DNA of 64,000 nt. Origin: Gammaproteobacteria bacterium. GTDB lineage: Bacteria > Pseudomonadota > Gammaproteobacteria > Eutrophobiales > Eutrophobiaceae. Position 1 is the stretch's first letter. Each line of letters starts with the position of its first letter. The stretch spans positions 3,632 to 67,631 of the forward strand of contig JANQJZ010000013.1 in the NCBI GenBank assembly GCA_028281365.1, written 5' to 3'. The notes under the pieces are model-generated. The model saw only the letters and a program-made list of their open reading frames with translations. It had not been told where the DNA came from and made no database searches. Both the position numbers and the translations under genes were made by a program. Below, one piece after another: positions 5,426-22,371 of this stretch.

Positions 5426-7102
5426 TTACTCTGTTAAATAATTTTTTATCGCATCAAGTTGCATGGGTTTAAATTTCGTTAACTCTACCGGTAGTTCGAC
5501 ACCCTGTTTTTGTATGACATGTATTCGATTTAATACCGCAGCCCCGAATAAAATATTCATTGCAACCGTCACCGCATCACGGTTCTTTGGTTCCGACAGA
5601 AATGTATCTTTAGTCCATTCATTAAATGCACCCATTGCAGGTCCACACCAGACCTGATAATCAACCTTACGTTCTTCAACGCCGGCATTGGCCCAACGCG
5701 ATGACAAACCAAGATACCAGCGAAATATTAAAGCCATTTTATGTTTTGGATTTTTCTTTGCTTTTTCAACTTGTGATGGATCACGATCATTAAAGAATTC
5801 TTCAGTGTTTTGCCAAACCTCTTCCATGGTCATCTTAAAGATCGTTTTTTCAAGTTTGGTTTTCTCAGCTTCAGGGATCGCTTCAATTGAAGCGTATTGT
5901 TTATAAATGTCATAGAGTTTATTACCACGCATTGCGAACATCGTGCCACGCTTCAATACCTGAAGCTTTACACCCATTTCAAACATATCGACAGCGGGGG
6001 CCATGGTGACATCGGCCTGTTCTGCCTCTGCCAGCATTTCCCTGACAATATCTGATGAACCGGATTCCTTGCAAGCCTGATTCACCGTACCCGTCACAAC
6101 ATAAGCAGCACCCATGGCAAAGGCACCAAGCGCTGATGCCGGCGTTGAAATACCACCTGCTGCACCCACCCGAAGTTTATCTTTATACTTATATATAGAC
6201 TGTATCTGATCGCGTAATGCCAATATGGTTGGCAACAAGGTAATCACCGGCCGGTTATCAGTATGTCCACCTGAATCAGCTTCAACAGTCAAGTCCTGTG
6301 CCATTGGAATATATTGCGCAAGTTCAGCTTCTTCTGCTGTTATTTCACCCTGCTCTATTAATTGATTTAATAATTTTTCAGGTGGCGGGCTAAACCATTT
6401 TTCTGCAAGCTCAATACGTGAAGCCTTGGCTATAATGCGATTGGGTACAACAATATTTCCTTTACCGTTTTTATGAATACCTGTTACACGATATTTAACG
6501 ACAGGTAATGTTAATTTCATGTAAGCAGATGTCTCTACAAGTTTTACTCCATACTTTATATATAGATCGACGACAGCTTGCTCATGACCCTTTTCATTCG
6601 GGCTATAGATAAGGTTAAAACAATAAGGGTTATCTCCAAGTGAGCTTTGTAATTCTTTAATCGCATTTTCAATTTCATTTAACGATAAACCAGCCGCACC
6701 AAATGACGCCAGCATTCCTGCATTAGCAATCGCCTTCACTAATTTTACTGATGCAATACCATTTGCCATCGACCCTGTCATATAGGGGTAACTAAGCCGA
6801 TAGTCCTGACAAAACGATTGATCGCCAAGTGCATTAATTGTTTGTTTTGGCGCAATACCCAGCAGTGGATAAGAGTTATCTTTATTACTGTTTTCATTAA
6901 GCGCAACAGTGCCGCCTGATGCAATGGATATCTTTGCTGCGTTTTTAACCAAACAAAATGGCATATCAAGTCGCAGCAGATATTCTGGCAAATTATCCAG
7001 CTTAGCCAGGCTTGAATCACTGTTCGATTGCCAGTAACCAAGGGAATGTTTATTTGACTCCAGGCTCTTTGCTGGAGCGACTATTTCTGGAAGTGAACTC
7101 AC
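5426..7102 (-). CDS. pfaD: PfaD-like trans-acting enoyl reductase (2-nitropropane dioxygenase/FMN-dependent ER family)
   Basis: 558-aa ORF, about 540 aa expected for PfaD. Glycine-rich FMN-barrel signature (GAAGGISTP, AFAMGAAYVVTGTVNQ). Stop lies 4 bp upstream of the pfaA start, suggesting translational coupling. Confidence 0.75.
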   Translation of the reverse strand: MSSLPEIVAPAKSLESNKHSLGYWQSNSDSSLAKLDNLPEYLLRLDMPFCLVKNAAKISIASGGTVALNENSNKDNSYPLLGIAPKQTINALGDQSFCQDYRLSYPYMTGSMANGIASVKLVKAIANAGMLASFGAAGLSLNEIENAIKELQSSLGDNPYCFNLIYSPNEKGHEQAVVDLYIKYGVKLVETSAYMKLTLPVVKYRVTGIHKNGKGNIVVPNRIIAKASRIELAEKWFSPPPEKLLNQLIEQGEITAEEAELAQYIPMAQDLTVEADSGGHTDNRPVITLLPTILALRDQIQSIYKYKDKLRVGAAGGISTPASALGAFAMGAAYVVTGTVNQACKESGSSDIVREMLAEAEQADVTMAPAVDMFEMGVKLQVLKRGTMFAMRGNKLYDIYKQYASIEAIPEAEKTKLEKTIFKMTMEEVWQNTEEFFNDRDPSQVEKAKKNPKHKMALIFRWYLGLSSRWANAGVEERKVDYQVWCGPAMGAFNEWTKDTFLSEPKNRDAVTVAMNILFGAAVLNRIHVIQKQGVELPVELTKFKPMQLDAIKNYLTE

Positions 7103-7363
7103 TCTAATAAATTAATCTGTTCTGTATTTGAAGATTATAGATGGCTGGCATAATGATTATTTGCATCCTTTACTATCAGCTTGTATTGTGCGCGTCCTGA
7201 ACCACCCTAATGCATTAAATAGTATCATTTTTTTCCTTTTTAGACCTCGCAAAATGGGGTCCCGGGAATATATTATTCTGAAAGCATAGACTTAGTTAAA
7301 CGCGAAACAGATATTCAGCTAAAATGATAAGATATTGTTATTTATAGAAATAATAAATTAAGA

Positions 7364-8443
7364 ATGAAGTCCAGAGAGAACTACCAGACCCAATTAGACG
7401 ACGATGCCTACCAGAATGAGATCCTGCAGCATGTTTCCAGGACCTTTGCATTAACCATCCCTGAACTTCCAGACCCACTTTGCCGGGTCGTTTCAAATGC
7501 CTATTTGCTCTGTCGAATCGCCGATACGATTGAGGATGATAAATCCATGTCAGCTGAGGCGAAGCGGGAGTTCGCCGAACAATTTATCGAGGTTGTTAAG
7601 GGAACTGAAGATTCGAAAGACTTTTCTGAGAGCCTGTTTCCACTCCTGTCAGCAACGGCGACCGAAGCTGAACATGATCTGATTGCCAATACTGAACCCG
7701 TCATTCGCATAACACATAGTTTTAATCAACGGCAACGCGCTGCACTGGAACGATGTGTCGCAATTATGGCTGAAGGTATGGCACGCTATCAGGATGCCGA
7801 GACCCTGGATGGTGTCGCTGACCTGGATGATATGGGTCAGTATTGTTATTACGTTGCCGGGGTTGTCGGTGAGATGCTAACCGAGCTTTTTTGTGATTAT
7901 TCTGCCGAGATTGATAAGCACCGGGATGAATTGATGCAGCTGGCGGTATCTTTCGGACAAGGCTTGCAAATGACCAATATCCTGAAAGATATTTGGGAAG
8001 ATCACGCAAGGGGGGCTTGTTGGTTACCGCGTGATATCTTCGATAAATACGGTGTTGATATACGACATAAGCAAGCCGGGCAAGTTGCATCGGGTTTTGA
8101 TGAAGCCATGCTGGAGTTGCTTGGAGTTGCCCATGCTCATGTTTATAACGCCTTACGCTATACATTAATCATTCCCACCCATGAAAAAGGACTGCGCCGG
8201 TTCTGTTTGTGGGCACTTGGCATGGCTGTATTGACACTGGATAAGATCCGACAGAACCCGGGATTTACGCAAGGGCAACAGGTAAAAATCAGCAGACGTA
8301 GCGTTAAGGCGACAATTTTCCTGACCAGTCTTTTTGTTGGCCAGGATCGAATTCTGAGTTATCTATTTCAGTTTTCCGGGCGGCATTTGCCTATGGCAAG
8401 TATTCATGAGAGACTTGATAGATCAGCTTTTTCCACACACTAA
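7364..8443 (+). CDS. sqs: Squalene synthase (eukaryote-type farnesyl-diphosphate farnesyltransferase, as in Methylococcus sqs)
   Basis: 359 aa. Motif MGQYCYYVAGVVGEMLTELF matches the SQS domain (YCHYVAGLVG). Aspartate-rich IADTIEDD. Sits immediately upstream of shc. Confidence 0.8.
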   Translation: MKSRENYQTQLDDDAYQNEILQHVSRTFALTIPELPDPLCRVVSNAYLLCRIADTIEDDKSMSAEAKREFAEQFIEVVKGTEDSKDFSESLFPLLSATATEAEHDLIANTEPVIRITHSFNQRQRAALERCVAIMAEGMARYQDAETLDGVADLDDMGQYCYYVAGVVGEMLTELFCDYSAEIDKHRDELMQLAVSFGQGLQMTNILKDIWEDHARGACWLPRDIFDKYGVDIRHKQAGQVASGFDEAMLELLGVAHAHVYNALRYTLIIPTHEKGLRRFCLWALGMAVLTLDKIRQNPGFTQGQQVKISRRSVKATIFLTSLFVGQDRILSYLFQFSGRHLPMASIHERLDRSAFSTH

Positions 8444-8546
8444 TTAACAAAAATCAGGGGAACTGTAGATGTTTATGGAAATTATATTTTCACCAGTTTT
8501 ACCTGATTCCAAAACTTGCAATAGGTCAATCTAAACCGTTATATCA

Positions 8547-10496
8547 ATGACTCTGGATACACAAAATGCAAATGCATCGAATTTGGTTATTGATGAATCT
8601 GCATCTCAAAATTTAGTCATCAATCTTGAAGAATCTATCCAGGCAGCCTGCGAAAAACTCCTGGATCAACAACACAGCGATGGTCATTGGGTTTATGAAC
8701 TGGAGGCAGATTGCACTATTCCTGCTGAATATATATTAATGAATCATTTCGTCGGTGAGATCGACGATGAAACAGAAGAAAAAATTGCACAATATTTACG
8801 TGACAACCAGACTGAAGAAGGTGGTTGGGCATTGTTTACCGGTGGTGACTTTGATATCAGTTGTTCAGTTAAAGCTTATTATGCGTTGAAACTGGTTGGC
8901 GATAATCCTAAAGAAGAACATATGATCAGGGCCAGGAATTTGATCCTGAATCATGGTGGTGCAGCACATAGTAATGTGTTTACCCGAATTACGATGGCTT
9001 TGTTCGGACAGGTACCCTGGCGTGCAACGCCCTTTATTCCTGCTGAAGTTATCATTTTACCAAAATGGTTCCCTTTCCATATCGACAAGGTATCTTACTG
9101 GTCACGTACTGTTATGGTACCTTTATTTGTTTTATGTACCATGAAACCACTGGCTGTTAATCCACGTGGTGTTGATATTAGAGAACTATTTATTGTCCCG
9201 CCGGAAGACGAACAACATTATTTTAAAGTAACAACAGCCTTAAACCGTGCATTTTTAATGCTCGACCATGTTGGTCGTATAATTGAAAAACTGGTACCAA
9301 AATTTGTACGTCAATACTCCATTCGTAAATGTGAACAGTGGTTTCTTGCAAGGATGAATGAAGACCATGGTATCGGCGGAATTTTTCCCGCTATGGTTAA
9401 TGTATTCGAATCGCTTGTTGTGCTTGGTTACCCAAAAGAACACCCAACACGTATTAAGGCACGTAAGGCAATTGATGCTTTGCTAACAAAACGCGGTAAT
9501 ACAAAGTATGTACAACCTTGCGTATCTCCCGTCTGGGATACCTGCCTTGCCAGCCAAACCATGATCGAAACCGAAACCGAAAATAACATCACCAGGGAAA
9601 TTGAACACGGACTTGACTGGCTCAAGGAACGTCAGCTTAGTGATGAGCCCGGTGACTGGCGTATCCCTCGCCCTAATCTGGCAGGTGGTGGATGGGCATT
9701 CCAATATAGTAATTATTATTACCCTGATCTGGATGATACTTCCATGGTTGCCTGGGCAATGCACCGTACAGGTCTGGAAAAATACGCTGAACCAATTGAA
9801 CGGGCAGCTAACTGGGTGGCAGGTATGCAATCGAATGGCGGTGGTTTTGGCTCATTTGAAGTAAACAATACCCAGTATTATTTAAATGCTATTCCGTTCG
9901 CTGATCATGGTGCGCTTCTGGATCCACCTACTGCAGATGTAACAGGCCGTTCAATTGCCCTGCTAAGTCTTGCCGATAAGGAAAAATATGCAACGAATAT
10001 TAAGGACGCGATAAATTATTTAAAAGAAGAACAGGAAGATGATGGTTCATGGTTCGGCCGTTGGGGCACCAACTATATTTATGGCACCTGGTCAGTGCTT
10101 ACTGCATTAGAGATTGCAGGTGAAGATCCTGAACAGCCTTATATACGTAAAGCTGTAGAATACTTGCAAGACATGCAAAATGAAGATGGTGGCTGGGGAG
10201 AAAGTAATGACAGTTATTACCCACCGCGTCATCGACGACCTTATAGAAGTACCGCCTTTCAGACTGCATGGGCGCTGTTATCATTATTAGCGGCAGGTGA
10301 AGCTGAATCTGACACAGTTATAAAAGGTATTAAGTATTTAATATCGGCGCAATCTTCAGATGGTCACTGGTATGATGATAGTTATACTGCACCAGGCTTT
10401 CCACGTGTGTTCTATTTAAAATATCATGGTTACACAAAATATTTTCCACTTTGGGCATTGGCCCGCTATCGTAATATCACGCAATACGAATCTTGA
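8547..10496 (+). CDS. shc: Squalene-hopene cyclase
   Basis: 649 aa. Multiple QW repeats (GGW, DGHW, DGSW). Catalytic DxDDT motif present as DLDDTSMV. Confidence 0.9.
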   Translation: MTLDTQNANASNLVIDESASQNLVINLEESIQAACEKLLDQQHSDGHWVYELEADCTIPAEYILMNHFVGEIDDETEEKIAQYLRDNQTEEGGWALFTGGDFDISCSVKAYYALKLVGDNPKEEHMIRARNLILNHGGAAHSNVFTRITMALFGQVPWRATPFIPAEVIILPKWFPFHIDKVSYWSRTVMVPLFVLCTMKPLAVNPRGVDIRELFIVPPEDEQHYFKVTTALNRAFLMLDHVGRIIEKLVPKFVRQYSIRKCEQWFLARMNEDHGIGGIFPAMVNVFESLVVLGYPKEHPTRIKARKAIDALLTKRGNTKYVQPCVSPVWDTCLASQTMIETETENNITREIEHGLDWLKERQLSDEPGDWRIPRPNLAGGGWAFQYSNYYYPDLDDTSMVAWAMHRTGLEKYAEPIERAANWVAGMQSNGGGFGSFEVNNTQYYLNAIPFADHGALLDPPTADVTGRSIALLSLADKEKYATNIKDAINYLKEEQEDDGSWFGRWGTNYIYGTWSVLTALEIAGEDPEQPYIRKAVEYLQDMQNEDGGWGESNDSYYPPRHRRPYRSTAFQTAWALLSLLAAGEAESDTVIKGIKYLISAQSSDGHWYDDSYTAPGFPRVFYLKYHGYTKYFPLWALARYRNITQYES

Positions 10497-11221
10497 GTAA
10501 AATCGGGGTCATTGCTGCCTTACCGGTTGAAGCAAGATGTCTCTATCCGGAGAAACTTGACATAGCTTCACCAGCAGAGATTCATTCGGATATTTTTTTA
10601 TGTCTCAGCGGCATCGGAACTGAATCAGCATATACAGCAATAGAACAATTATTAAGCCTGGAAATCGATGCATTAGTCAGTTGGGGAGTTGCAGGCGCTC
10701 TTGATCCGTCATTAAAAGCTGGTGATTTATTAATCGCTGACTCCGTAATTATATCCGACAAGAATTTTCAGACATCATCCGATTGGCTGGTCAATATTAA
10801 AAACTACTTCCTGAATATATCACTTAACCCTGTAATCGCACCTATTGCATCAATTGATGCAATGTCTATCACGAACAACGATAAAACTCTTTTACATAAC
10901 AATACTGGTGCCCTGGCGGTAGATATGGAAAGTGCTGCAATTGCTGATATTTCAAGCAAACACAATCTGGATTTTATTGTGATTCGGGCAATTGCCGATG
11001 AAATAGATACTCCTATTCCTGAAGTTGTAACAAAATACACCAATGCACTGGGTCAACCGGATTTTATTCCTTTTGTAATTTCCTGCCTGAAGAATCCCCG
11101 GCAAATTAAGGAACTGATTAAATTGGCAAAATGCTACAATAAATCAATTAAAACGCTTAAACATTGTGCTTACGATTTAAAAAAGGAACATTTTCTCTAT
11201 AATACACAGCGTTTTGACTAG
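10493..11221 (+). CDS. hpnG: Hopanoid-associated nucleosidase HpnG (MTA/SAH nucleosidase-PNP family)
   Basis: 242 aa. PNP_UDP-like N-terminus KIGVIAALPVEA. Start overlaps the shc stop (ATGA). Position after shc matches hpnG synteny. Confidence 0.7.
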   Translation: MSKIGVIAALPVEARCLYPEKLDIASPAEIHSDIFLCLSGIGTESAYTAIEQLLSLEIDALVSWGVAGALDPSLKAGDLLIADSVIISDKNFQTSSDWLVNIKNYFLNISLNPVIAPIASIDAMSITNNDKTLLHNNTGALAVDMESAAIADISSKHNLDFIVIRAIADEIDTPIPEVVTKYTNALGQPDFIPFVISCLKNPRQIKELIKLAKCYNKSIKTLKHCAYDLKKEHFLYNTQRFD

Positions 11222-11264
11222 GCTATTTTTTTAACTCTCTATATATTTACCAGGCAACACCATA

Positions 11265-12011
11265 ATGAAATTAAGTACAGAGCAAATTGAAGAATTTAAA
11301 TCTACAGGCTTTCTCGTAGTACGGAATCTTTATGATACGGATGAAATTAAAGACATTACTGCGTGGACGGAAGAAGTCGCTAATTATCCGGAAGTACCGG
11401 GAAAATATATGATGTTTTTTGAAGAAAGTAAACTTGAGCCAGGCAAACGAATACTGTCCCGCATGGAAGATATTGAGCCCTTCCATCAGGGTTTGAGCGA
11501 ATTGTTTGTTAAAGGCAAGATTCAACAAATTACATCACAACTTTTTGATGATGAAGCCATTCTATTTAAAGACAAAATTAATTTTAAAATGCCAGGTGGT
11601 GATGGTTTCAAGGCACACCAGGATGTCCAGGCTGGATGGGACCGTTACGGCAAATTACATATAACTGCATTGGTAAGTATCGATTCATCTACTATTGAAA
11701 ATGGTTGTCTTGAGGTTGCAGGTGGCTACCATGATAAGGGACTGATTGGTGAATCATGGAAACCGCTTGAAGAAGATGCCCTGGATTATATGCCAGTCCC
11801 GACTGAACCTGGCGATGCCGTCTTTTTTGATTCATATGCACCACATCGTTCCAAACCAAACATGACAAATGAACAACGCCGGGTCTTATACGTTACTTAC
11901 AATGCTGCAGCTGAAGGTGATCATCGTCGACGATATTATGATGATAAGCGACTTAGCTACCCGCCGGATATAGAACGCGATCCTAATAAAGAATACGTCT
12001 TCAGAGTATAA
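11265..12011 (+). CDS. Phytanoyl-CoA dioxygenase (PhyH) family Fe(II)/2-oxoglutarate oxygenase
   Basis: 248 aa. HxD (KAHQDV) and distal His (YAPHRS) facial-triad residues with PhyH-like spacing. Embedded between hpnG and hpnN. Confidence 0.6.
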   Translation: MKLSTEQIEEFKSTGFLVVRNLYDTDEIKDITAWTEEVANYPEVPGKYMMFFEESKLEPGKRILSRMEDIEPFHQGLSELFVKGKIQQITSQLFDDEAILFKDKINFKMPGGDGFKAHQDVQAGWDRYGKLHITALVSIDSSTIENGCLEVAGGYHDKGLIGESWKPLEEDALDYMPVPTEPGDAVFFDSYAPHRSKPNMTNEQRRVLYVTYNAAAEGDHRRRYYDDKRLSYPPDIERDPNKEYVFRV

Positions 12012-12029
12012 TAGGATATCTCGGAAAAT

Positions 12030-12215
12030 GTCTTTTTTCGCGAGAGTTTCGTCAGCACCGTGCTCACAAAATTGCAGGAGCAAATTTTGGACAGCCGAAG
12101 GCTGGCCCGAAGGGCGAGATACATGGATGTATCGAGCAAATCCTCATGTATTATCTATACACTCCGGTTTTCCGTGCGCTGCTTTCTCACTCTCACAAAA
12201 AAATATTATTTTCGG
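12030..12215. repeat. Structured intergenic repeat, copy D (5' leader of hpnN). Perfect 8-9 bp hairpin caaaattg..caa(a)ttttg, a gacagccNNNggctg hairpin, and terminal gagagt/actctc inverted ends
   Basis: Shares a core over 40 nt (ttggacagcc..ggctg.c..gaa.ggcga) and a tttcgtcagc 10-mer with the element at 39483-39625. Shares cgtgctcac with copy A at 29371. The small ORFs 12028-12260 in the track are judged non-coding. Confidence 0.45.
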
Positions 12216-12269
12216 AGAAATCCTATAATCAAACATCCATATGTACCTTTATTCATGTGAATAATATCA

Positions 12270-14879
12270 ATGAATGAACAGCACTTACCATTCATAGAAA
12301 AACTTGTTACCCGCTGGGTTGAATTTACAGAACGTTATTCAACAGGCGTCGTTGTTGGTATCTTCATCCTGACAATATTTTCCATTCTTTTTATTAAAGA
12401 AAACCTGGGAATGAGTACCAGTACAAAAAATATGTTATCCGAAGAATTACCATGGCGGCAATTGGATTTGGAAGATGAAAAACTGTTCCCGCAATTTTTA
12501 AACAATATACTAATCGTTATAGATGCGAATACGCCTGACCAGGCTATCGACAGTGCCAATGAAATCTTCAGTGTATTGAACAGAGATTCAAAATATATAA
12601 ATGATATTTATTATCCATCTTCATTACCCTATTTTCAGCAGTCAGCCTTTTTGTTTCTTGACCTGGATGAACTTCAGGATCTGGCCGATCGACTGGCTGC
12701 TATACAGCCATTCCTTGGCACCCTGATGCAGGATAAAAACCTGCGGGGACTGTTTAATATGTTAAGTGATGCTTTAACTGCTAAACAGGATGGCGAGGAT
12801 ATAGATATAAAACCATTGCTGGAAGAGATAAATCGCGTATTTCAAAATGATGATTATTACATCTCCTGGCAAAAGTTAATGAATGCCGATGCAGATAAAG
12901 AACCTCCCTATCGTGAATTTATTGTTGTTCAGGTAAATGATATCAATGATGATATTTTGCCGGGAGAAAAGGTTCTTACACAAATCAGATCCGTCATAAA
13001 AGAGACAGAAGCATATAAGGAAAAAACGATAAACGTTAGATTGACAGGCGGTATACCACTTTCTAACGAAGAACTTAAAAGTGTATCAAAGGCCAACATT
13101 CAAGCCATTGTCATTTCACTAATTCTGGTTTCGATTATTCTGGTTGTGGGCCTTGGCTCTGGCTGGCTGGTTATTTCCTGCTTAATAACATTAATAACCG
13201 GCCTGATTGTAACAACTGCGTTTGCAACACTCACTGTAGGTGAATTAAACCTGATTTCAGTTGCCTTTGCTGTGTTATATATTGGGCTTGGCATTGATTT
13301 CGCAATTCACCTGACGCTTCGATACCGTGAAGAGCTTGTAAAAGGTACGAATAAAAAAGACCTGCTAAAATTAACCACAAAACGAATATATCGTTCCTTA
13401 TTACTTTGTGCCGTTTCAACTGCTATTGGTTTTTATTCCTTTATTCCGACTGACTATCAAGGTGTTGCGGAACTGGGCTGGATCGCGGGTAGTGGCATGT
13501 TCATTAGTATTTTTTTTACTTTTACATTACTCCCCGCTTTATTAAGTCTAAAACAAAATAATCTCCTAAGTGAAAAAGTATCTGCCAGGAATAATGTTTT
13601 CTTGTTATGGTTGGGTAAATTCTCCTGCCAGTATTCCAGACAAATATTAATGCTGACATTTATAGTTACTATCATCATTTTAACTCAAATAGACAGGATT
13701 AAATTCGATACCAATACCCTCAATCTACAGGATCCTGAAAACGAATCCGTTCAAACCTATCGGGATCTCCTTGGTGACAGTAATACTTCTCCGTGGAATA
13801 GTATTTTGCTAAAACGGGGTAAAGAAGAAACCACTAGAGTTATCCAGCAATTGGAAACCCTGCCATTGGTCGATAATGTAATCTGGCTGGAAGATCTTTT
13901 GCCTGAGGGGCAGGAAGAAAAACTCTTCATCATTGACGAGATGAATCTTTTTATGGGACAGCTCGATACAAGCTCAAACCCGGGTTCAGTTGAAGAAAAT
14001 GAACGTAAAAAGTCGATAATAAAATTAACTGAACAATTAAACGACTATTCTGATCCGTCCATTCAAACCGAGCTACATGAATTAAATAATCATTTATTAC
14101 ATCTGTTAAACCAAAATCCGGACAATTCTTTACTGGTTAAGCTTGAAAATAAAATGCTGAAAAACCTGGATGGTCGGCTTGATGCGTTATCTTATGCGCT
14201 TGCAGCTGAAGAACTCGAGCTCGAAGATATACCTGCAGAAATACATGATCGTTGGCTAAATAATAATTATTACAGGATACAGATAACTCCAAGAGAAAAC
14301 CTGAATGACAATATTGCAATGAAAAACTTTGTTGAGCTCATCCAGTCTCATGATAAACAGGTAATAGGTTCACCTGTCATCAAAATTGAGGCAGGCAAAG
14401 CAGTCGTTACGGCTTTTAGAGATGCGTTTAGCTATGCATTAATTGCAATCGCCTTGTTATTACTATTCCTGATAAAAATCAAGACGGATGCAGCAATCAT
14501 TCTTGTTTCCGTTTTGATTGGTGCAATCTTTACTTGTGGTTTCATGTTGCTATTCAATATGCCACTTAACTTTGCCAATATTATTGGTCTGCCATTATTG
14601 CTTGGTATAGGTGTTGATAGTGGTATTCATATTACTGATCGATTTAGACAGGATGGAAATAACAATCAAAATATCTATTTGACCAGCTCTTCGCGTGGTG
14701 TGATTGTCAGTTCACTGACAACGATATGCAGTATCAGTAATCTTGCCTTTTCCTCCCATCAAGGCACCGCCAGCATGGGTATACTTTTAACCACAGGTCT
14801 TGCGTCGATGATGATTTCGACTATGATAATCCTGCCTGCATTTCTAATATGGCAGCAATCAATAAAAGGCAATAAATGA
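12270..14879 (+). CDS. hpnN: Hopanoid transporter HpnN (RND/MMPL superfamily)
   Basis: 869 aa. Two 6-TM bundles, each followed or preceded by a large periplasmic loop, typical of the RND/MMPL fold. Located in the hopanoid cluster. Confidence 0.8.
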   Translation: MNEQHLPFIEKLVTRWVEFTERYSTGVVVGIFILTIFSILFIKENLGMSTSTKNMLSEELPWRQLDLEDEKLFPQFLNNILIVIDANTPDQAIDSANEIFSVLNRDSKYINDIYYPSSLPYFQQSAFLFLDLDELQDLADRLAAIQPFLGTLMQDKNLRGLFNMLSDALTAKQDGEDIDIKPLLEEINRVFQNDDYYISWQKLMNADADKEPPYREFIVVQVNDINDDILPGEKVLTQIRSVIKETEAYKEKTINVRLTGGIPLSNEELKSVSKANIQAIVISLILVSIILVVGLGSGWLVISCLITLITGLIVTTAFATLTVGELNLISVAFAVLYIGLGIDFAIHLTLRYREELVKGTNKKDLLKLTTKRIYRSLLLCAVSTAIGFYSFIPTDYQGVAELGWIAGSGMFISIFFTFTLLPALLSLKQNNLLSEKVSARNNVFLLWLGKFSCQYSRQILMLTFIVTIIILTQIDRIKFDTNTLNLQDPENESVQTYRDLLGDSNTSPWNSILLKRGKEETTRVIQQLETLPLVDNVIWLEDLLPEGQEEKLFIIDEMNLFMGQLDTSSNPGSVEENERKKSIIKLTEQLNDYSDPSIQTELHELNNHLLHLLNQNPDNSLLVKLENKMLKNLDGRLDALSYALAAEELELEDIPAEIHDRWLNNNYYRIQITPRENLNDNIAMKNFVELIQSHDKQVIGSPVIKIEAGKAVVTAFRDAFSYALIAIALLLLFLIKIKTDAAIILVSVLIGAIFTCGFMLLFNMPLNFANIIGLPLLLGIGVDSGIHITDRFRQDGNNNQNIYLTSSSRGVIVSSLTTICSISNLAFSSHQGTASMGILLTTGLASMMISTMIILPAFLIWQQSIKGNK

Positions 14880-15487
14880 ATATAAGTGATAAACCCTGGG
14901 ACGCTCGAATAGCATACCGATTAGTCTATCCATTGCGTAATACATTTATTACGCCAAATTACCTGACATCTTTACGTCTGCTGTGCGGGATTATTTCATT
15001 CGTTTTCCTGTCCTTAGGTGAATATATATACAGCAATATCGGTGCTTTATTCTTTGTGCTATCAAACTTTCTTGACCACACGGACGGTGAATTGGCGCGT
15101 ATCACAGGTAACACTAGTAAAAAAGGACATTACTTTGATCTGGTTTCCGATGCGTTGGTCAACATCTTACTTTTCCTGGGTATCGGTTTTGGTTTAATGA
15201 AGACTGATCTTGGTGTTTATGCCGGTATTATGGGGGGAATTGCCGGCTTATCCGTAGCTACAATATTTCATATGCGTAATGAGATTGAAAAGCAGATAGG
15301 GAAACAAATGGCCCGCCAACCTAACAAGGCCGGCGTAGAAGCCGAGGATGTACTGTATCTATTGCCTGTCGTGACACTTTTACAACTTGATTATTATTTC
15401 CTGTTTTTGGCATGCTTCGGTGCGCCTGCCTTTTGTTTATGGGTAACGAAAGATTACTTCTCAAGAAAAATCCTTTCTAAAATATGA
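14876..15487 (+). CDS. CDP-alcohol phosphatidyltransferase family protein
   Basis: 203 aa membrane protein with the complete signature D-x2-D-G-x2-A-R-x8-G-x3-D-x3-D (DHTDGELARITGNTSKKGHYFDLVSD). Overlaps hpnN stop and hpnA start by 4 bp each (ATGA), so it is translationally coupled. Confidence 0.75.
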   Translation: MNISDKPWDARIAYRLVYPLRNTFITPNYLTSLRLLCGIISFVFLSLGEYIYSNIGALFFVLSNFLDHTDGELARITGNTSKKGHYFDLVSDALVNILLFLGIGFGLMKTDLGVYAGIMGGIAGLSVATIFHMRNEIEKQIGKQMARQPNKAGVEAEDVLYLLPVVTLLQLDYYFLFLACFGAPAFCLWVTKDYFSRKILSKI

Positions 15488-16470
15488 AAACCTTAATAAC
15501 CGGGGCAAATGGATTTGTCGGTTCATCTGTTCTAAGAGAATTACTAAATAAAGGTATCAATATCAGGGCACTTGTCAGACCCGGTTCCGACAGGCGTAAT
15601 TTTGATGGCCTGGATATTGAAATATTTGAAGGCGATCTGCTTGATGTAAATTCATTAAAAAAAGCCGTGATCGGATGTGGTCATTTATATCATGTTGCAG
15701 CTGATTATCGTCTATGGATACCTGATCCGGAATCTATGTATAAAACCAATGTTGATGGAACCCGAGAACTGGTTCTTGCAGCATCTGAAACCGGTATGGA
15801 TAAAATTGTCTATACCAGTAGCGTTGCTACTCTGGGCATCAATAAAGATGGTACACCGTCAGATGAAACCACTCCGTCATCAGTCGAAGATATGATTGGA
15901 CATTACAAACGATCAAAGTTTCTTGCAGAACAGGAAGTAAAAAAATTAATAACCGAAAAACAATGTCCGGTAACTATTGTTAACCCATCAACGCCTGTTG
16001 GACCAAGAGATATAAAACCCACGCCTACTGGCAGAATTGTACTCGATACGATACGTAAGCGAATGCCAGCCTATGTTGATACAGGATTAAATATCGTACA
16101 TGTAGATGATGTGGCAAAAGGGCACTTATTGGCCATGGAAAAAGGCATAGCTGGTGAACGATATATTCTTGGTGGTGATAATATGACGCTTGCATCAATA
16201 CTTGAGTATATTTGCGTTAGTGAAGATCTGACACCGCCGAAAATTAAACTTCCCCATAATCTTATAATACCAATTGCCTGGTTTATGGAACGAATCGCTG
16301 ATATTACACATAAAGAGCCACGAGCTACCGTGGAAAGTGTTCGAATGTCAAAAAAACTGATGTTTTTTTCCAGTGAAAAGGCGAAAAAGGAATTAGGTTA
16401 TCAATCGCGTCCGGGTGTAGAGGGATTAAAGGATGCGATTGACTGGTTTAACAAGGAAAATTACCGTTAA
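15484..16470 (+). CDS. hpnA: Hopanoid-associated sugar epimerase HpnA (NAD-dependent epimerase/dehydratase)
   Basis: 328 aa. N-terminal Rossmann motif TGANGFVGS. Catalytic YxxxK (YKRSK). Follows hpnN. Confidence 0.75.
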   Translation: MKTLITGANGFVGSSVLRELLNKGINIRALVRPGSDRRNFDGLDIEIFEGDLLDVNSLKKAVIGCGHLYHVAADYRLWIPDPESMYKTNVDGTRELVLAASETGMDKIVYTSSVATLGINKDGTPSDETTPSSVEDMIGHYKRSKFLAEQEVKKLITEKQCPVTIVNPSTPVGPRDIKPTPTGRIVLDTIRKRMPAYVDTGLNIVHVDDVAKGHLLAMEKGIAGERYILGGDNMTLASILEYICVSEDLTPPKIKLPHNLIIPIAWFMERIADITHKEPRATVESVRMSKKLMFFSSEKAKKELGYQSRPGVEGLKDAIDWFNKENYR

Positions 16471-16651
16471 AATGAAATGTGCCATCCATGGCACAATTAT
16501 CCGTGACCAAACCCTTAAGTATTAAACTTAAACTAAATCACAAACTACTTCCTTGTGGTTCTGAATATAATCATTTTTATAAATTATTTCTTCCTCTGAA
16601 AAAAGGATTTTTTTTAGGATTTAATTACTCAATTATGATGATTTTTTAACC

Positions 16652-18355
16652 TTAAATTAAAAAATAGAACAAAGTGAGAATAAACAAACCTAATAAAATG
16701 AATATATTTCTTGCTATTGATAAGCGAAAAGCCAAGACATTTGATACTTCTTTGATTGGTATCTTCGTATACAAATGACATAGTCCTGTTTGGAATTGTT
16801 CTAAATAATTAAACAGTACGTTAAAAATATAAGGTCCCGGCTTTCTGTAAAACCAGTCAAAATCAAGACTAATCGTTAATGTACGTTGCATCCATGGCAA
16901 CATGACAAAAAACGCCAACCCTGAAAACAAAAGCAATTGAAGTTGTGTAACAACATGGGCGGCTGTATAAGGAACATACTGAACTGGATAAGGAAGCATG
17001 TCATACAGGACTTCAGGAAAAACTCCTAATAAAATACAAGTAATTGCAAAAAGTATCATACCAATTTGCATATTAAGCGGTGGATCATCAGGTCTTAAAC
17101 CACTGTCTTTTTGAAAAAAAACAAACCACGGAAATTTAATACCTGCATGTAGAAATACGCCTGCTGATGCAGCTTGTAATAATAGCCATACCCATATTAT
17201 ATGTTCATCAACTGATGCCTGGGTAATCATTGATTTGCTGACAAAACCTGACGTCAATGGGAATGAAGAAATTGCCAGTGCACCTATAATTCCACAAAGT
17301 GCGGTTACCGGCATTGACTGAATCAGACCACCCAAATCGGTGCATTTACGTTTACCAGTCATATACAAGACCGACCCGGCTGACATTAACAATAATGCCT
17401 TATAGATAATGTGGGTAAATGCATGAGCCGCTGCACCATTAAGTGCCATCTCGGTACCGATACCTATTCCACAAACCATAAATCCAACCTGGTTAATAAT
17501 GCTATAGGCCAGGATACGGCGCATGTCATTTTCCAGTAACGCATAGATAATGCCATAGAAGATCATGAACAAACCGATGTAGACCAGTAAATCAGTCCCC
17601 GGGAAGCCCCGTAACAAGACATAAACAGCTGTCTTGGTAGTGAATGCACTCAGGAAAACCATACCGCTGAAGGATGTCTCTGGATATGCATCTGCCAACC
17701 AGGCACTTAAAGGTGGTGCACCTGCATTTAACAGGAAGCCACTTAGAATTAACCATGTGGCGACACTATTTGCCTGCATATGCGTAAATAACAATGAACC
17801 GGTTTCGTTAACATATGCAGTAATACCACACATTAAAACAACCCCACCCAGTAAATGGATCGTGATATAACGCATACCTGCCCGCCATGACCCATTATTG
17901 TTAGCAGACCAGATAATCAATGTAGAAGCCAGTGCCATTAACTCCCAAAAAATAAATAAACTAATCAGATCGCCAGCAAGCACAACTGACATGGCACCAC
18001 CTGCATAAATAAAAGCTGCAGCCAGCTCGGTTGATTTTGCCTGTTTACAACAAAACAGACTGCCCGTAAAAACAGTGATCGCAAATACAGTAAGAAAAAG
18101 ACGGCTCAGGGTATCCAGATTTATTAATATCAATTCATATTCAAGATATTGATAATTACAGGCATTACCCAATGGCATACTCCAGATACTGAGTAATGCA
18201 AGACAAGGTATAAGGAGTATAAACAACGTCCTCCTTGTCCCATTGAATAATGGAATAAAAAATCCTGAAAGGATTAGCAATAGACCAGGATGAAAAAGAC
18301 TACATGTCATAGTAATCATCCTTACGTTTAATGAAAACACCCAGTATTTTTGCAA
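16652..18355 (-). CDS. Complex I ND2/ND4/ND5-family (NuoL/M/N, MrpA/D-like) proton-translocating membrane subunit with about 100-aa C-terminal extension
   Basis: 567 aa polytopic protein. Internal region resembles antiporter-like subunits (e.g. HAFTHIIYKALLLM). The true start is probably at an internal Met, because the N-terminus in the track overlaps the upstream small ORF. Confidence 0.65.
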   Translation of the reverse strand: MQKYWVFSLNVRMITMTCSLFHPGLLLILSGFFIPLFNGTRRTLFILLIPCLALLSIWSMPLGNACNYQYLEYELILINLDTLSRLFLTVFAITVFTGSLFCCKQAKSTELAAAFIYAGGAMSVVLAGDLISLFIFWELMALASTLIIWSANNNGSWRAGMRYITIHLLGGVVLMCGITAYVNETGSLLFTHMQANSVATWLILSGFLLNAGAPPLSAWLADAYPETSFSGMVFLSAFTTKTAVYVLLRGFPGTDLLVYIGLFMIFYGIIYALLENDMRRILAYSIINQVGFMVCGIGIGTEMALNGAAAHAFTHIIYKALLLMSAGSVLYMTGKRKCTDLGGLIQSMPVTALCGIIGALAISSFPLTSGFVSKSMITQASVDEHIIWVWLLLQAASAGVFLHAGIKFPWFVFFQKDSGLRPDDPPLNMQIGMILFAITCILLGVFPEVLYDMLPYPVQYVPYTAAHVVTQLQLLLFSGLAFFVMLPWMQRTLTISLDFDWFYRKPGPYIFNVLFNYLEQFQTGLCHLYTKIPIKEVSNVLAFRLSIARNIFILLGLFILTLFYFLI

Positions 18356-18626
18356 ATATGATCATAGCGACACAGGTTAAAAACCCGTAAACAGCATGAA
18401 AAGCAAAAATACTTTCTATCCTGAAATGAGGATGTAGTGTAACGACCAGTTCAATTAATACGGTCAATAACAGAACAACAGCCGCCGCTACCCATATTTT
18501 TTTAATTGATGATTTTTTATAAAACCAGTTTTGTTTCATGACACGTTGCCTGTCAGTAGAGTAAGTATCTGCATTGCATAAACGGGATATAAAAATAATA
18601 CGATGGTCATTAAAGCTGTAAAGCAA
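18300..18626 (-). CDS. Small membrane protein (about 79 aa from Met at about 18539) between antiporter-like genes
   Basis: The ORF overlaps both neighbours. Starting at MKQNWFYKK gives a 2-TM protein with an ATGA overlap with the upstream gene end at 18536. No family recognised. Confidence 0.35.
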   Translation of the reverse strand: MLYSFNDHRIIFISRLCNADTYSTDRQRVMKQNWFYKKSSIKKIWVAAAVVLLLTVLIELVVTLHPHFRIESIFAFHAVYGFLTCVAMIIFAKILGVFIKRKDDYYDM

Positions 18627-20002
18627 AGTGCCAATACAATTGGCAACGGTGCTTCCCCGTTTGAGATCGTATTGTGTGATTTCGCTTCTTTAAAAAAAGC
18701 CATATACACAATAGGTAAAAAATAGGCGGCATTTAACAATGTACTTATAACAATTACCGTAACAGCGAACCAGGATTCAATAGTAAATGCACCCTGTAAA
18801 ATAAACCATTTACTTAAAAATCCTGCTGTCGGTGGCACACCAATCATGGATAGACTACCAATTGCAAAAGCCCCCATAGTCCATGGCATAGCTCTACCTA
18901 TACCATCAAGCTCACTGACCTTTGTTTTCCCTGAAGCCGTATAGATTGAACCTGCTGCAAAGAACAAGGTAATTTTACCAAAGGCGTGAGCAAGAATATG
19001 CATTGCCGCACCCATAATAGATATGGGCACAAGTATCGCTGTTGCCATAATCACATAAGATAATTGGCTAATAGTTGAATATGCAAGACGTCTTTTTAAA
19101 TTATCTGATTTTAATGCGATTATTGAAGCAATAATGATTGTCGCACCAGACAAATAGAGTAAAAAATTTAATTCTATAATGTCGGATAAAAGTGCTGGAG
19201 AAAATATATAGCTGACTATTTTAACAATACTAAACACACCTGCCTTTACAACAGCAACAGCATGCAATAATGCACTGACCGGTGTTGGAGCAACCATCGC
19301 GGCCGGTAGCCACTTGTGCATTGGCATTAATGCCGCCTTGCCAATTCCATAAGCATATAACAGTAACAGCAACAATATTATACTGTTGTCATTAACGTGA
19401 TTAAGTATGCCGCCTGTTTTAAAGTCAGTTGTATCAGCTAAAACATTTGTCCATATAATTGCTGACAGAAAAAAACAAATCGAAGTGCTTAAGAGTATAC
19501 CAAGGTAAACACGTCCGCCATGGATTGCATCCTGAGTCCCTTTGTGTGTCACCAGGGGATAAGTTGATAAGGTCAGGACTTCATAAAATATAAACAACGT
19601 AACCAGATTTCCAGCAAATGCAACACCTATAGTGCTAAAAATAGCGATAGCAAAAAAGATATAAAACCGTGTCTGGTTACTTTCATTGTTACCACGCATA
19701 TAACCTATCGAATAGATCGAATTTATTAACCAGAGTAGTGATGCAATACAGGCAAATAACATCCCCAGCGGTTCCAGTTCAAAATAGATTTCAAGACCCG
19801 GAAAGATTTCAAACAATAGTAAGCCAGGCGAATTTCCATCCAGTACCAGTGGAAGAATAGAATAAACAACTATAATCAGAGCCACGGCAGACAATAAGGT
19901 AATGGCTTCTCTCAGGTTTGGCAGTTTGTTTGCCAAAGCAATAAGGACTGTAGCCGCCAGGGGAATAATCAAAGCTATTAATATAAGGTTCCCGGAAGAC
20001 AT
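18536..20002 (-). CDS. MrpD/NuoN-like antiporter subunit (ND2/4/5 family)
   Basis: 488 aa with 14 predicted TM segments. Family motifs such as LLHAVAVVKAGVF and WLPAAM(V)APTPVSALLHA. Confidence 0.75.
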   Translation of the reverse strand: MSSGNLILIALIIPLAATVLIALANKLPNLREAITLLSAVALIIVVYSILPLVLDGNSPGLLLFEIFPGLEIYFELEPLGMLFACIASLLWLINSIYSIGYMRGNNESNQTRFYIFFAIAIFSTIGVAFAGNLVTLFIFYEVLTLSTYPLVTHKGTQDAIHGGRVYLGILLSTSICFFLSAIIWTNVLADTTDFKTGGILNHVNDNSIILLLLLLYAYGIGKAALMPMHKWLPAAMVAPTPVSALLHAVAVVKAGVFSIVKIVSYIFSPALLSDIIELNFLLYLSGATIIIASIIALKSDNLKRRLAYSTISQLSYVIMATAILVPISIMGAAMHILAHAFGKITLFFAAGSIYTASGKTKVSELDGIGRAMPWTMGAFAIGSLSMIGVPPTAGFLSKWFILQGAFTIESWFAVTVIVISTLLNAAYFLPIVYMAFFKEAKSHNTISNGEAPLPIVLALCFTALMTIVLFLYPVYAMQILTLLTGNVS

Positions 20003-20007
20003 GTTTG

Positions 20008-21486
20008 TTAATTTACCAGCCCATACGCAATATCTTTAGCAAAGCCGATATTGACGGATGTTTCTGTACCAAAATAAAGATTGGCCAAAACAAAAATAAA
20101 TAATGCAATATATAATAACCGGGGTGCATTCTGGGTATTATTATTGCTCAATTCAACAGCAGGAGTTTTAAAGTACGCTGCCTCCACTACTTTCCAGACA
20201 TAGAGGATAGAAAGTATTGATGAAAACACTATTATAATTACCAGGCTCCAATAACCTGCAGAAAAAGAAGCCTGTATCAATAACCACTTACTGGTAAAAC
20301 CTGCAGTTAAAGGAATGCCTATTAAACTTAACCCACCGAACAAAAAGCAAGCCGAAGTGTAAGGCATAAATTTTGAAATACCATGAAGCTGCGAAATCAT
20401 CTCAGTGTTATAACGATAAATAATGCAGGCAACTGATAAGAACAACGCGACTTTAATAACAGCATGATTAAACACATGTGCGAGACTGGCTGCCAGACCA
20501 AGTTCCGTTGCTATCGAGATTCCGAGCACCATATAACCTATCTGTGCAATACTCGAATAAGCCAACAAGCGCTTGATACTATCCTGTCTTATCGCCTGAA
20601 TCGAGCCATAAAGAACTGCACCACAAGCAAGAATCATTAACAGATCATTTAATACCAGCTGATTGAAACTGAATTCATAACCAAACAGCGAATAGATAAA
20701 CCGGATTAATGCATAGATAAAAACCTTGGTAGTCGTGCCCGCAAGAAATGTAGATACGATTACAGGTGAATAAGTATAAGCGTCCGGCAGCCATAAATGT
20801 AATGGAAATATTGCTGCTTTTATAGCAATACCAATAGTAAAAAATATTAAGGCAGTAATTACTGTATTTGTATTCTCTACATTGCCTAAACGATCAGACA
20901 GATCAAATATATTCAATGTACCAGTAACAGCATATAGCAGACCAACAGATATCAGAATAAAACTGGCACCGATTGTTCCTAATATTAGATATTTGAAAGC
21001 AGCATAAAGACATCGTCGATCACGGCTAATACTGATCATTGCATAAGATGACAACGACGCAATCTCAATAAATACAAACAGGTTAAATGCATCACCCGTC
21101 ATGACTACACCAAGTAACCCGGTCAGATTTAACAGGAAGGCTGCATAAAAAAGATATAATCGATCAGATGCAATTTCAGATGCCATACTTTCCCTGGCAG
21201 CAATAACGACCACTGCAGCAACTGCATTAATAATTAATAGCATATAGGCGGTTAATAAATCGACATGGTATTCAATACCAGCAGGGGCAACCCACCCACC
21301 TAGTGCATAGGTGATATTATTTCCCCCGGACACTGAGGTAAGCAATAAACAGGCAATTATAAAAGTAATGCAACTTACGAGTGATGCTAATACCCAGCTC
21401 AATGTGCCATTGCGCAAAATGACACAGACCGGGGCAAATATAAGAGGTATAACAACTTGTAGTATAGGCAAATGATTACTTAACAC
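20008..21486 (-). CDS. MrpD/NuoM-like antiporter subunit (ND2/4/5 family)
   Basis: 492 aa. HLWLPDAYT..PVIVSTFLAGTTTK motif typical of NuoM/MrpD. Lies 5 bp from the downstream paralogue. Confidence 0.75.
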   Translation of the reverse strand: MLSNHLPILQVVIPLIFAPVCVILRNGTLSWVLASLVSCITFIIACLLLTSVSGGNNITYALGGWVAPAGIEYHVDLLTAYMLLIINAVAAVVVIAARESMASEIASDRLYLFYAAFLLNLTGLLGVVMTGDAFNLFVFIEIASLSSYAMISISRDRRCLYAAFKYLILGTIGASFILISVGLLYAVTGTLNIFDLSDRLGNVENTNTVITALIFFTIGIAIKAAIFPLHLWLPDAYTYSPVIVSTFLAGTTTKVFIYALIRFIYSLFGYEFSFNQLVLNDLLMILACGAVLYGSIQAIRQDSIKRLLAYSSIAQIGYMVLGISIATELGLAASLAHVFNHAVIKVALFLSVACIIYRYNTEMISQLHGISKFMPYTSACFLFGGLSLIGIPLTAGFTSKWLLIQASFSAGYWSLVIIIVFSSILSILYVWKVVEAAYFKTPAVELSNNNTQNAPRLLYIALFIFVLANLYFGTETSVNIGFAKDIAYGLVN

Positions 21487-21830
21487 TACAACTCCTGCTG
21501 GATTTCATTATCTTCGATAGTACCAAATGCCTTATATATTCTTATGATTATTGCAAGACCCAACGCTGTTGTTGAAATACCGACAACGATTGCGGTCAGG
21601 ATCAAAACATGGGGTAAAGGACTGGAGTAAAGCTGTGCTGACTCAGTCAATACGGGTGCAGTTCCACCACTGACCTTTCCTAAAGATATAAACAGGATGA
21701 AGATTGATGTCTGGAATATATTAATTCCAATCAATTTTTTAACCAGGTTATCATGTGCAATGATGATGTATAGACCTGACATCATCAAAAATATCACAGC
21801 CCAATAATTAAATAATCCAAGAATTTCCAT
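21486..21830 (-). CDS. MrpC/NuoK-like small subunit (cation:proton antiporter subunit C family)
   Basis: 114 aa, 3 TM. Similar to MrpC/NuoK (LIGINIFQTSIFILFISLG). Stop overlaps the start of the next gene. Confidence 0.7.
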   Translation of the reverse strand: MEILGLFNYWAVIFLMMSGLYIIIAHDNLVKKLIGINIFQTSIFILFISLGKVSGGTAPVLTESAQLYSSPLPHVLILTAIVVGISTTALGLAIIIRIYKAFGTIEDNEIQQEL

Positions 21831-22371
21831 TCCGAAATATGACCCGTTGTTAATGACGATTATTAATAGTTGTTATAAACAAGCTAAATAGAAGAGAGCT
21901 TTTGGAGGGGTATTATATATAAAAAAACCGGATGCGCAGGCAAAACAAAAGATAATGACGCAAAGTATTGTTCCCCAATGCGAGGTAAAATCCTGTAAAT
22001 TCGTGCTGTCGGTGGCAAATGATACGCCTGACATAAGAAAAAATAATACAGAAAGCAGTTTAGTGGAAAATTCCTTATTTTTAAAGCGCGTTTATCACAT
22101 TACCCATGGCCGTGTCTTAACCGGCTTATTCGCTAGTTTTAATCCGGAATTAACCACCTGCAGTACATATTCCATGCCAAACCCGCAAGACCGGATTATT
22201 CAAATAAATTAATAATAATCAGTGACTTACATAGATATACTGTTCTGGTCAACGGTTGTTCAAAAAAGGCAAGTTTGTTCCGGTATCCGGCAACTAACAT
22301 GCTGAAATTTTGCATAAAGGTTTTGATGTATGATGCTTATCATGCGGAAATAATCATTCAGGTATAATGGC

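Follow-up and report, generated by a model that had tools for sequence, protein, structure and literature searches.

A five-gene Mrp-type antiporter locus in low-GC gammaproteobacteria and the ten-gene operon of its relatives

The five genes and their products

We analysed a stretch of 64,000 nucleotides from a gammaproteobacterium of the Eutrophobiaceae (GenBank assembly GCA_028281365.1, contig JANQJZ010000013.1, positions 3,632 to 67,631 of the forward strand), called here the window. Five co-directional open reading frames (ORFs) lie head to tail on its minus strand between positions 16652 and 21830, with overlaps between neighbours and in the order C-D1-D2-S-D3. ORFs and Pfam/NCBIfam matches agree with the original prediction, made from the sequence alone, in giving a membrane module of one MrpC-like, two MrpD-like, one small and again one MrpD-like protein. 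The tight packing with overlapping junctions that it described was found as well, and so was the placing of hopanoid genes on the opposite strand. Comparison with relatives suggests a reading to which we give an even chance: a ten-gene operon for a Mrp-type (CPA3) cation/proton antiporter is represented here by its distal half, which has been passed on as an operon of five genes in its own right. The features of the locus are the following (TM, transmembrane; aa, amino acids; AF2, AlphaFold2).

21486..21830, minus strand: C, MrpC/NuoK-like subunit, first gene of the operon, 114 aa
20008..21486, minus strand: D1, antiporter-like subunit of the MrpD/MbsH/MbhH type, 492 aa
18536..20002, minus strand: D2, antiporter-like subunit resembling NuoL/ND5 and the MrpA N-terminal part, without C-terminal extension, 488 aa
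18300..18539, minus strand: S, small subunit with two predicted TM helices and no family assignment, 79 aa
16652..18310, minus strand: D3, third antiporter-like subunit, resembling MbsH', encoded by the last gene of the operon, 552 aa
17726..17728, minus strand: codon of D3 Asn195, at the TM7 lysine position of antiporter-like subunits (alignment to E. coli NuoL/M/N)
16655..17083, minus strand: C-terminal extension of D3, residues 410-552 (hydropathy and AF2 model)
21831..22371, unstranded: 541-bp intergenic region from C to the divergent sco1, presumed to hold the promoter of the five-gene operon
16478..16495, minus strand: terminator-like hairpin between D3 and a convergent epimerase gene (consensus scan; weak evidence)

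The first product, C, matches PF00420 in Pfam (3e-21) and scores above the cutoff of the NCBIfam equivalog for the cation:proton antiporter subunit C (NF005621, 135.7 bits, cutoff 126), which provides the MrpC/NuoK-like subunit of a Mrp-type (CPA3) system. It is 55-79 % identical to the gene in the same position in 58 related loci. Both glutamates of NuoK (E36 and E72) are absent from it, and the motifs conserved in this family of C subunits are retained.

The two antiporter-like subunits that follow belong to PF00361 (D1, 6e-69; D2, 5e-52, with a weak match to Proton_antipo_N). The closest solved relatives of D1 are MbsH (6u8y_H, 226 bits), MbhH (212) and MrpD (204), MrpA reaching only 107, and its charged residues E141, K223, K254, H337, H341, K345 and K400 are invariant or nearly so in 58 sequences. 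For D2, MbhH, ND5/NuoL and the Dietzia MrpA are about equally close (126-134 bits), and its key residues vary little or not at all among 51 sequences. TM8 of D2 carries His247 and Lys253 together; having both a histidine and a lysine on this helix is the pattern reported for MrpA (PMC7419157). When aligned to E. coli NuoL/M/N, D1 and D2 retain the TM5 glutamate, the TM7 and TM8 lysines, the TM11 His/His/Lys and the TM12 lysine. The locus thus has the at least two PF00361 subunits with the full set of conserved residues that are found in Mrp-type systems.

The third antiporter-like subunit, D3, also matches PF00361 (6e-45) and scores 686 bits with NF009310 in NCBIfam (cutoff 564). Its closest solved relative by sequence is MbsH' (6u8y_X, 130 bits). 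Identity is 62-81 % in 80 species genomes, and the 120 best homologues are all full length and 70-81 % identical, one of them 99 %. E123, K226 and K359 never vary, and 80 of 81 sequences have H296, H300 and K304. D3 deviates from the conserved Glu/Lys/His set only at TM7, where Asn195 aligns with the lysines K229 of NuoL, K234 of NuoM and K217 of NuoN of E. coli, and this asparagine is found in all 81 sequences.

The original prediction had taken an extension of about 100 aa in D3 to be unique. In fact, the C-terminal 140 residues or so are conserved in all 81 family members examined. Hydropathy places TM segments at 410-439, 451-472 and 525-552: two additional helices, then some 50 residues of amphipathic character, then a last helix. 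The AF2 model, of moderate confidence (pLDDT 72, pTM 0.73; weakest at 473-485), places helices at 412-438, 450-489, 491-515 and 523-551. At full length it superposes better on the lateral-helix carriers MrpA, NdhF, ND5 and NuoL (TMq 0.70-0.78) than on MrpD (0.65-0.67). The amphipathic stretch holds the motif SLDFDWFYR, in which D483 and R489 are invariant and D485 is present in 80 of 81 sequences. The TM15-loop-HL-TM16 element of MbsH' clamps the antiporter-like subunits of MBS (PMC7684303), and by analogy the lateral amphipathic helix of D3 may play the same role. Separately, a near-invariant loop (residues 390-414, 17069-17143, minus strand; GIKFPWFVFFQKDSGLRPxDPPxNM) between TM14 and the first extra helix varies less than most TM segments and might serve S or another partner as a docking site.

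The ATG of S (18539) overlaps the stop of D2 as ATGA, giving a protein of 79 aa. The original prediction was right to see here an unrecognised membrane protein with two TM helices, but not in its listed length of 108 aa. D3 starts at 18310, with an 11-nt overlap with the end of S, in agreement with the gene calls in relatives. We found 32 homologues of S, all 79-81 aa long and 55-75 % identical. A profile search against 1.84 billion representatives retrieved 1560 clusters (at 50 % identity) with E <= 1e-3, 389 of them with E <= 1e-10, and S lies between D2 and D3 in 66 loci. It has no sequence match in Pfam, NCBIfam or PDB. The family shares an N-terminal tryptophan, two TM helices, a H-x-H/Y-F loop, the motif F-G-F-x-A-x-Y-G-F and a tail K-R-x-D-x-Y-Y-D. 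Some representatives (P0201, P0240, P0246, P0291 and P0294) carry lysine-rich or very acidic N-terminal extensions of 100-160 aa, which may be mis-called starts or lineage-specific additions. In one relative (L075, 9700-17774) the S-D3 pair is convergent with the genes from E to D2 and detached from the rest of the operon. In another (L044, 9427-11728, on a 6.4-Mb chromosome) the pair stands isolated, and its neighbourhood has no informative partner genes. Because S and D3 stay paired in these split operons, S would be a two-helix subunit associated with D3, and the two genes suggest a separable add-on unit.

A ten-gene operon and its truncation in one clade

A scan for relatives of D3, with one genome per species, found at least 493 species, of which the best 80 were examined (the locus L023 was discarded, being on an N-masked scaffold). 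The order C-D1-D2-S-D3 is kept in nearly all of these 80 genomes. Clustering of the flanking ORFs placed four more protein clusters, covering five genes, directly upstream of C and on the same strand in 57 loci. The usual form of the system is therefore a ten-gene operon. According to Pfam the five additional genes encode MNHE, MrpF_PhaF, PhaG_MnhG, MbhD+MbhE and MnhB, the last two sometimes fused. MbhD+MbhE is homologous to the C-terminal domain of MrpA (hence A^C), as part of the homologies that link the subunits of Mrp, MBH and complex I (PMC7419157). The full order reads mrpE-mrpF-mrpG-(mbhD+mbhE = A^C)-mnhB-C-D1-D2-S-D3. It is collinear with the archaeal mbs membrane-arm genes A, B, C, D, E, G, H and H', D2 and S being inserted between the H-like and the H'-like genes.

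The ten-gene operon is found in Alpha-, Beta- and Gammaproteobacteria and in Magnetococcales, with cultured carriers in Colwellia, Thalassotalea, Pseudoalteromonas, Rhodoferax and Bradyrhizobium. One contig of Longimicrobiales, truncated upstream, shows the D2-S-D3 end of the block. Among 80 marine metagenome loci picked by a MnhB motif, every locus long enough to judge has the ten-gene layout. Annotation of the operon is patchy, under the labels 'Na+/H+ antiporter subunit B/C/D' and 'DUF4040' (e.g. in Colwellia, Thalassotalea, Pseudoalteromonas sp. C2R02 and Bradyrhizobium retamae), and the literature that we searched neither sets the ten-gene form apart as a class of Mrp nor annotates S. The five-gene block is conserved across genomes, and the suggestion that it forms a system apart from Mrp does not hold, given the ten-gene operon of 57 relatives.

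The family has its own diversity in organisation and sequence. Marine lineages of 28-35 % guanine-plus-cytosine (GC) content (L086-L165, e.g. L088, L089, L118, L121, L140) carry the full ten-gene operon with a divergent D3 (about 500-640 bits against the profile) and an S of 30-70 bits, pointing to deep diversity. In a marine contig of 27 % GC (L092) a MnhB-like gene (3680-4078) comes first after a divergent murE/F-mraY cluster, with no E/F/G/A' genes upstream, so that other lineages have broken the ten-gene operon at different junctions. A histidine kinase with a MASE1 domain lies upstream of mrpE on the opposite strand in nine mostly betaproteobacterial loci (L026, L027, L033, L035, L058, L070, L072, L074, L081); in L076 it shares the strand of the operon, and in L060 it lies downstream. 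It is possibly a lineage-specific regulator of the operon.

The window shares with this family the orthologous C, D1, D2, S and D3 (44-81 % identity), in the same order and with similarly overlapping junctions. It differs in that the first five genes are not contiguous with C, their place being taken by a 541-bp spacer and sco1. The window and the loci L002-L013 form one monophyletic clade in a tree of D3 (neighbour-joining, without support values). It is made of low-GC gammaproteobacterial metagenome-assembled genomes labelled Legionellales, Thiotrichaceae or Gammaproteobacteria, spans 31-51 % GC and has D3 identities down to 69 %. The genes for E, F, G, A^C and B are absent from the locus in the eight clade members with enough upstream sequence. 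As in the window, clade relatives have a divergent gene for Sco1 or PCuAC and then C. With the root on a divergent full-operon group, several full-operon lineages split off before the clade, whose sister group is formed by 71 others. It is nested among full-operon lineages, and the ten-gene state is therefore ancestral. The five-gene form occurs in this one clade only and is a truncation derived from the full operon.

In the 541-bp region itself (21831..22371) matches to promoters are unconvincing and homologues of E/F/G/A'/B are absent. A 53-aa ORF in it (21873-22034), considered as an extra upstream gene, was rejected since it is not conserved in the clade.

Losing half of an ancestral operon from the locus might signal that the remaining genes are non-functional leftovers of a disrupted mrp operon on their way to decay. 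Yet, the five ORFs are intact and coupled by start/stop overlaps, all catalytic residues are retained, and over 100 clade protein clusters share 70-81 % identity in D3. Of the columns conserved at >= 95 % in full-operon lineages, the share retained by the clade is 82 % for C, 88 % for D1, 96 % for D2, 86 % for S and 95 % for D3, and all changes at these near-invariant columns are conservative (C keeps 32 of 39, with seven changes). Relative to D3, divergence within the clade compares with that outside as 0.97 to 0.98 for C, 1.15 to 1.07 for D2 and 1.29 to 1.38 for S, and neither these three nor D3 have accelerated. The conservation and the relative rates of the five genes therefore lead us to exclude decay, for which we would keep only a negligible probability. 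They also argue, weakly, that the structural context of C would be unchanged.

Where the small-subunit genes may be, and what the five proteins may do

We propose the following history and function for the distal half of the Mrp-type operon. The operon would have been broken between mnhB and C in the ancestor of this low-GC marine gammaproteobacterial clade. The five proteins would form a membrane arm in which MrpC, the NuoK-like subunit, abuts a row of three antiporter-like proton-channel subunits. D3 would be the outer subunit, its C-terminal lateral helix and final TM helix clamping the row as in MbsH', NuoL and MrpA. The arm would move protons down the proton-motive force. More tentatively, export of cations might require the small subunits E, F, G, A^C and B as a module. 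If this module is encoded elsewhere in the genome, the complex would still be a ten-subunit Na+(K+)/H+ antiporter.

Several results weigh against this proposal. We built hidden Markov models (HMMs) from the E, F, G, A' and B proteins of relatives and searched all six frames of the 64-kb window. Neither there nor in 14 clade loci (up to 21.7 kb) was any MrpE/F/G/A^C/B found, the best E being 0.19. Hence, MrpE/F/G (PF01899, PF04066, PF03334) are not co-encoded within the window or the clade loci, and neither MrpB (PF04039) nor the MrpA C-terminal domain (PF13244/PF20501) occurs in the window, in S or in the extension of D3. Metagenome contigs were scanned for the motif YVQFHGDxGPGG of MnhB, written in A/T-ending codons, with 106 matches, 80 of them readable. 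In none of these is mnhB followed by anything but C-D1. This negative is weak: the filter on codons is expected to admit only 1-16 % of the genes of the clade, for which the scan thus has low power, and the reading covered 80 of the 106 matches. The ratio of D1 to D3 divergence is 1.39 in the clade and 1.16 outside it, i.e. D1 evolves about 20 % faster, which could reflect a lost interface. The literature that we searched holds no report of transport or assembly for either the ten- or the five-gene form. A homology search with the A'B fusion of Pseudoalteromonas returned only proteins of Alteromonadales, at >= 75 % identity, and none on the chromosome-sized contigs of the clade, and so does not bear on relocated copies.

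For the C-terminal domain of MrpA and for MrpB/E/F/G, these searches bear out the original prediction that MrpA/B/E/F/G are missing at the module, and none of the five proteins has them fused to it. They also answer whether MrpB-like (DUF4040) or MrpE/F/G-like domains might hide in the D3 extension and the small ORF, as it had asked: Pfam and NCBIfam scans led us to reject such a fusion into either protein. Its picture of a stripped-down, antiporter-only assembly holds for the content of the locus, where only MrpC-like, antiporter-like and small proteins are found, but not for the idea that the assembly stands apart from described Mrp systems.

The absences might then be taken at face value. 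The clade would have lost mrpE/F/G/A^C/B genome-wide and C-D1-D2-S-D3 would work alone, either as a proton-coupled transporter, with cations passing inside the antiporter-like subunits or where C meets D1, or as a proton conduit with some other role. The empty 64-kb window and clade loci of about 21 kb, the absence of a stand-alone E-F-G-A'-B operon among the 80 low-GC metagenome loci, the modest acceleration of D1 and the persistence of an intact five-gene operon across the range of GC and D3 identity of the clade all fit this view. Single antiporter-like subunits do function without the Mrp small subunits elsewhere, e.g. DabB with DabA. Nevertheless, a change of partners or of function normally leaves a trace, whereas the relative rate of C equals that of full-operon lineages, its seven changes are conservative, and no new gene has joined the operon. 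In Mrp structures C contacts A^C, B, F and G, and antiport in Bacillus, as far as is known, requires all Mrp subunits. The negative searches are themselves weak. We thus regard a self-sufficient complex as doubtful, if conceivable. The unchanged constraint on C, set against the negative searches, makes us lean slightly towards the E/F/G/A^C/B module being encoded elsewhere in the genomes of the clade.

The surroundings of the module suggest another partner. Upstream lie the genes for Sco1, PCuAC and Psd and then the genuine nuo operon, complete, at about 24.4-39.3 kb, so that the end of nuoN is some 2.5 kb from the module. This distance, and the copper-chaperone genes (Sco1, PCuAC) near the module, were both in the original prediction and are as it gave them. 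The synteny of nuoLMN, Psd/PCuAC/(Sco1), the module and the hopanoid genes is the same in two chromosome-sized contigs of the clade. One may thus imagine the five proteins as an accessory pumping arm docked on complex I, or on another respiratory enzyme, to which it would add proton-pumping subunits. Extra MrpD-like subunits are documented in the 2M and 'green' variants of complex I and in the TO_2 terminal oxidase of Ca. Manganitrophus (PMC9040806). Moreover, MbsH', the closest solved relative of D3, contacts MbsM, the anchor of the redox module in MBS. But three genes on the opposite strand separate the module from nuo, the module has its own upstream region, and the lateral helix of the NuoL of the window is without an insertion of the 26-aa (2M) type. 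No NuoH-, NuoB- or NuoD-like gene is associated with the module, and more than 57 other lineages carry the five genes in a self-contained Mrp operon without redox genes. We find an accessory arm improbable. A role in CO2/bicarbonate uptake of the DAB/Mps type would involve DabA (DUF2309), and the flanking genes encode no DabA-like product.

Downstream, on the opposite strand, the module is followed by genes for squalene synthase, squalene-hopene cyclase and a HpnN-like MMPL protein. They are part of a plus-strand hopanoid locus (5426-16470) encoding a squalene/phytoene synthase, a squalene-hopene cyclase, a HpnG-like nucleosidase, a PhyH dioxygenase, the HpnN-like MMPL transporter, a CDP-alcohol phosphatidyltransferase (PF01066) and an epimerase. 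The hairpin that separates the last of these from D3 has a 7-bp stem with four GC pairs, followed by a T-rich tail. A FabD/NMO gene on the minus strand precedes the hopanoid locus; in L082 it heads a large polyketide/polyunsaturated-fatty-acid-synthase gene. Further away in the window, positions 48001-52000 have a GC content of 0.33, compared with about 0.40 elsewhere. They encode a D12-class adenine methyltransferase (48295-49086), a N6/N4 methylase (49067-49828), a 134-aa protein without family (49852-50256) and a protein with DUF6575 and DUF7226 (50253-51551). This region looks like an acquired restriction-modification or defence islet.

Kinship with Mrp, MBS and complex I

The comparison with known systems places the module closest to Mrp. 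Like the canonical groups 1 and 2 (mrpABCDEFG, mrpA'CDEFG; PDB 6Z16, 7QRU, 7D3U), it combines MrpC with antiporter-like subunits that carry the Glu/Lys/His set. It differs in having three antiporter-like subunits instead of two and the extra small subunit S. Two separate proteins, D2 and MbhD/E, take the place of MrpA, a third subunit, D3, bears the lateral helix, and the locus of the window is without E, F, G, A^C and B. The cyanobacterial group-3 cluster, mrpCD1D2EFGAB, has a C-D-D order and a short 'A' (PMC5703873; PMC7419157), and this order is also that of the window.

The MBS of Pyrococcus furiosus (MbsA-H'; PDB 6U8Y) resembles the family in that its subunits A, B, C, D, E, G, H and H' correspond to E, F, G, A^C(+B), C and D1...D3. 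D1 has its best solved match in MbsH and D3 in MbsH', where a loop and a lateral helix likewise accompany additional TM helices at the C-terminus. In contrast, the window has no MbsM/J/K/L/N redox module, D2 and S are additional, and MbsH' has a lysine (Lys217) at the TM7 position where D3 has an asparagine.

The module also resembles the P-module of complex I (NuoK/N/M/L), with one NuoK-like and three antiporter-like subunits, the outer one bearing a lateral helix. This likeness fits the idea that an antiporter module was at the origin of complex I. Yet, its proteins score only 46-160 bits against NuoL/M/N of the window itself and of E. coli, where true orthologues score 200-348 bits. C is without both NuoK glutamates, and the window encodes a complete nuo operon separately. 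Hence, the module is neither orthologous to NuoK/L/M/N nor encoded together with NuoA/H/J and the Q and N modules.

The routes of Na+ and H+ in Mrp antiporters are disputed, as is the coupling of the antiporter-like subunits in complex I. If the small-subunit genes are absent genome-wide, the clade would have long maintained a complex made of the antiporter module only, equivalent to the complex I arm NuoK-N-M-L in free-living form. Such a complex would move ions, or couple to a partner, without the small-subunit domain to which current Mrp models assign the Na+ path. It would be a natural dissection, showing what an arm of MrpC plus antiporter-like subunits does alone. Even if the partners are encoded elsewhere, these results define an under-described class of Mrp systems present in hundreds of proteobacterial species. 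Its traits are three antiporter-like subunits, a MbsH'-like outer subunit with an invariant change from lysine to asparagine in TM7, and a subunit, S, that databases leave unnamed. Its collinearity with the membrane-arm genes of archaeal mbs and mbh bears on the kinship of Mrp, MBH/MBS and complex I.

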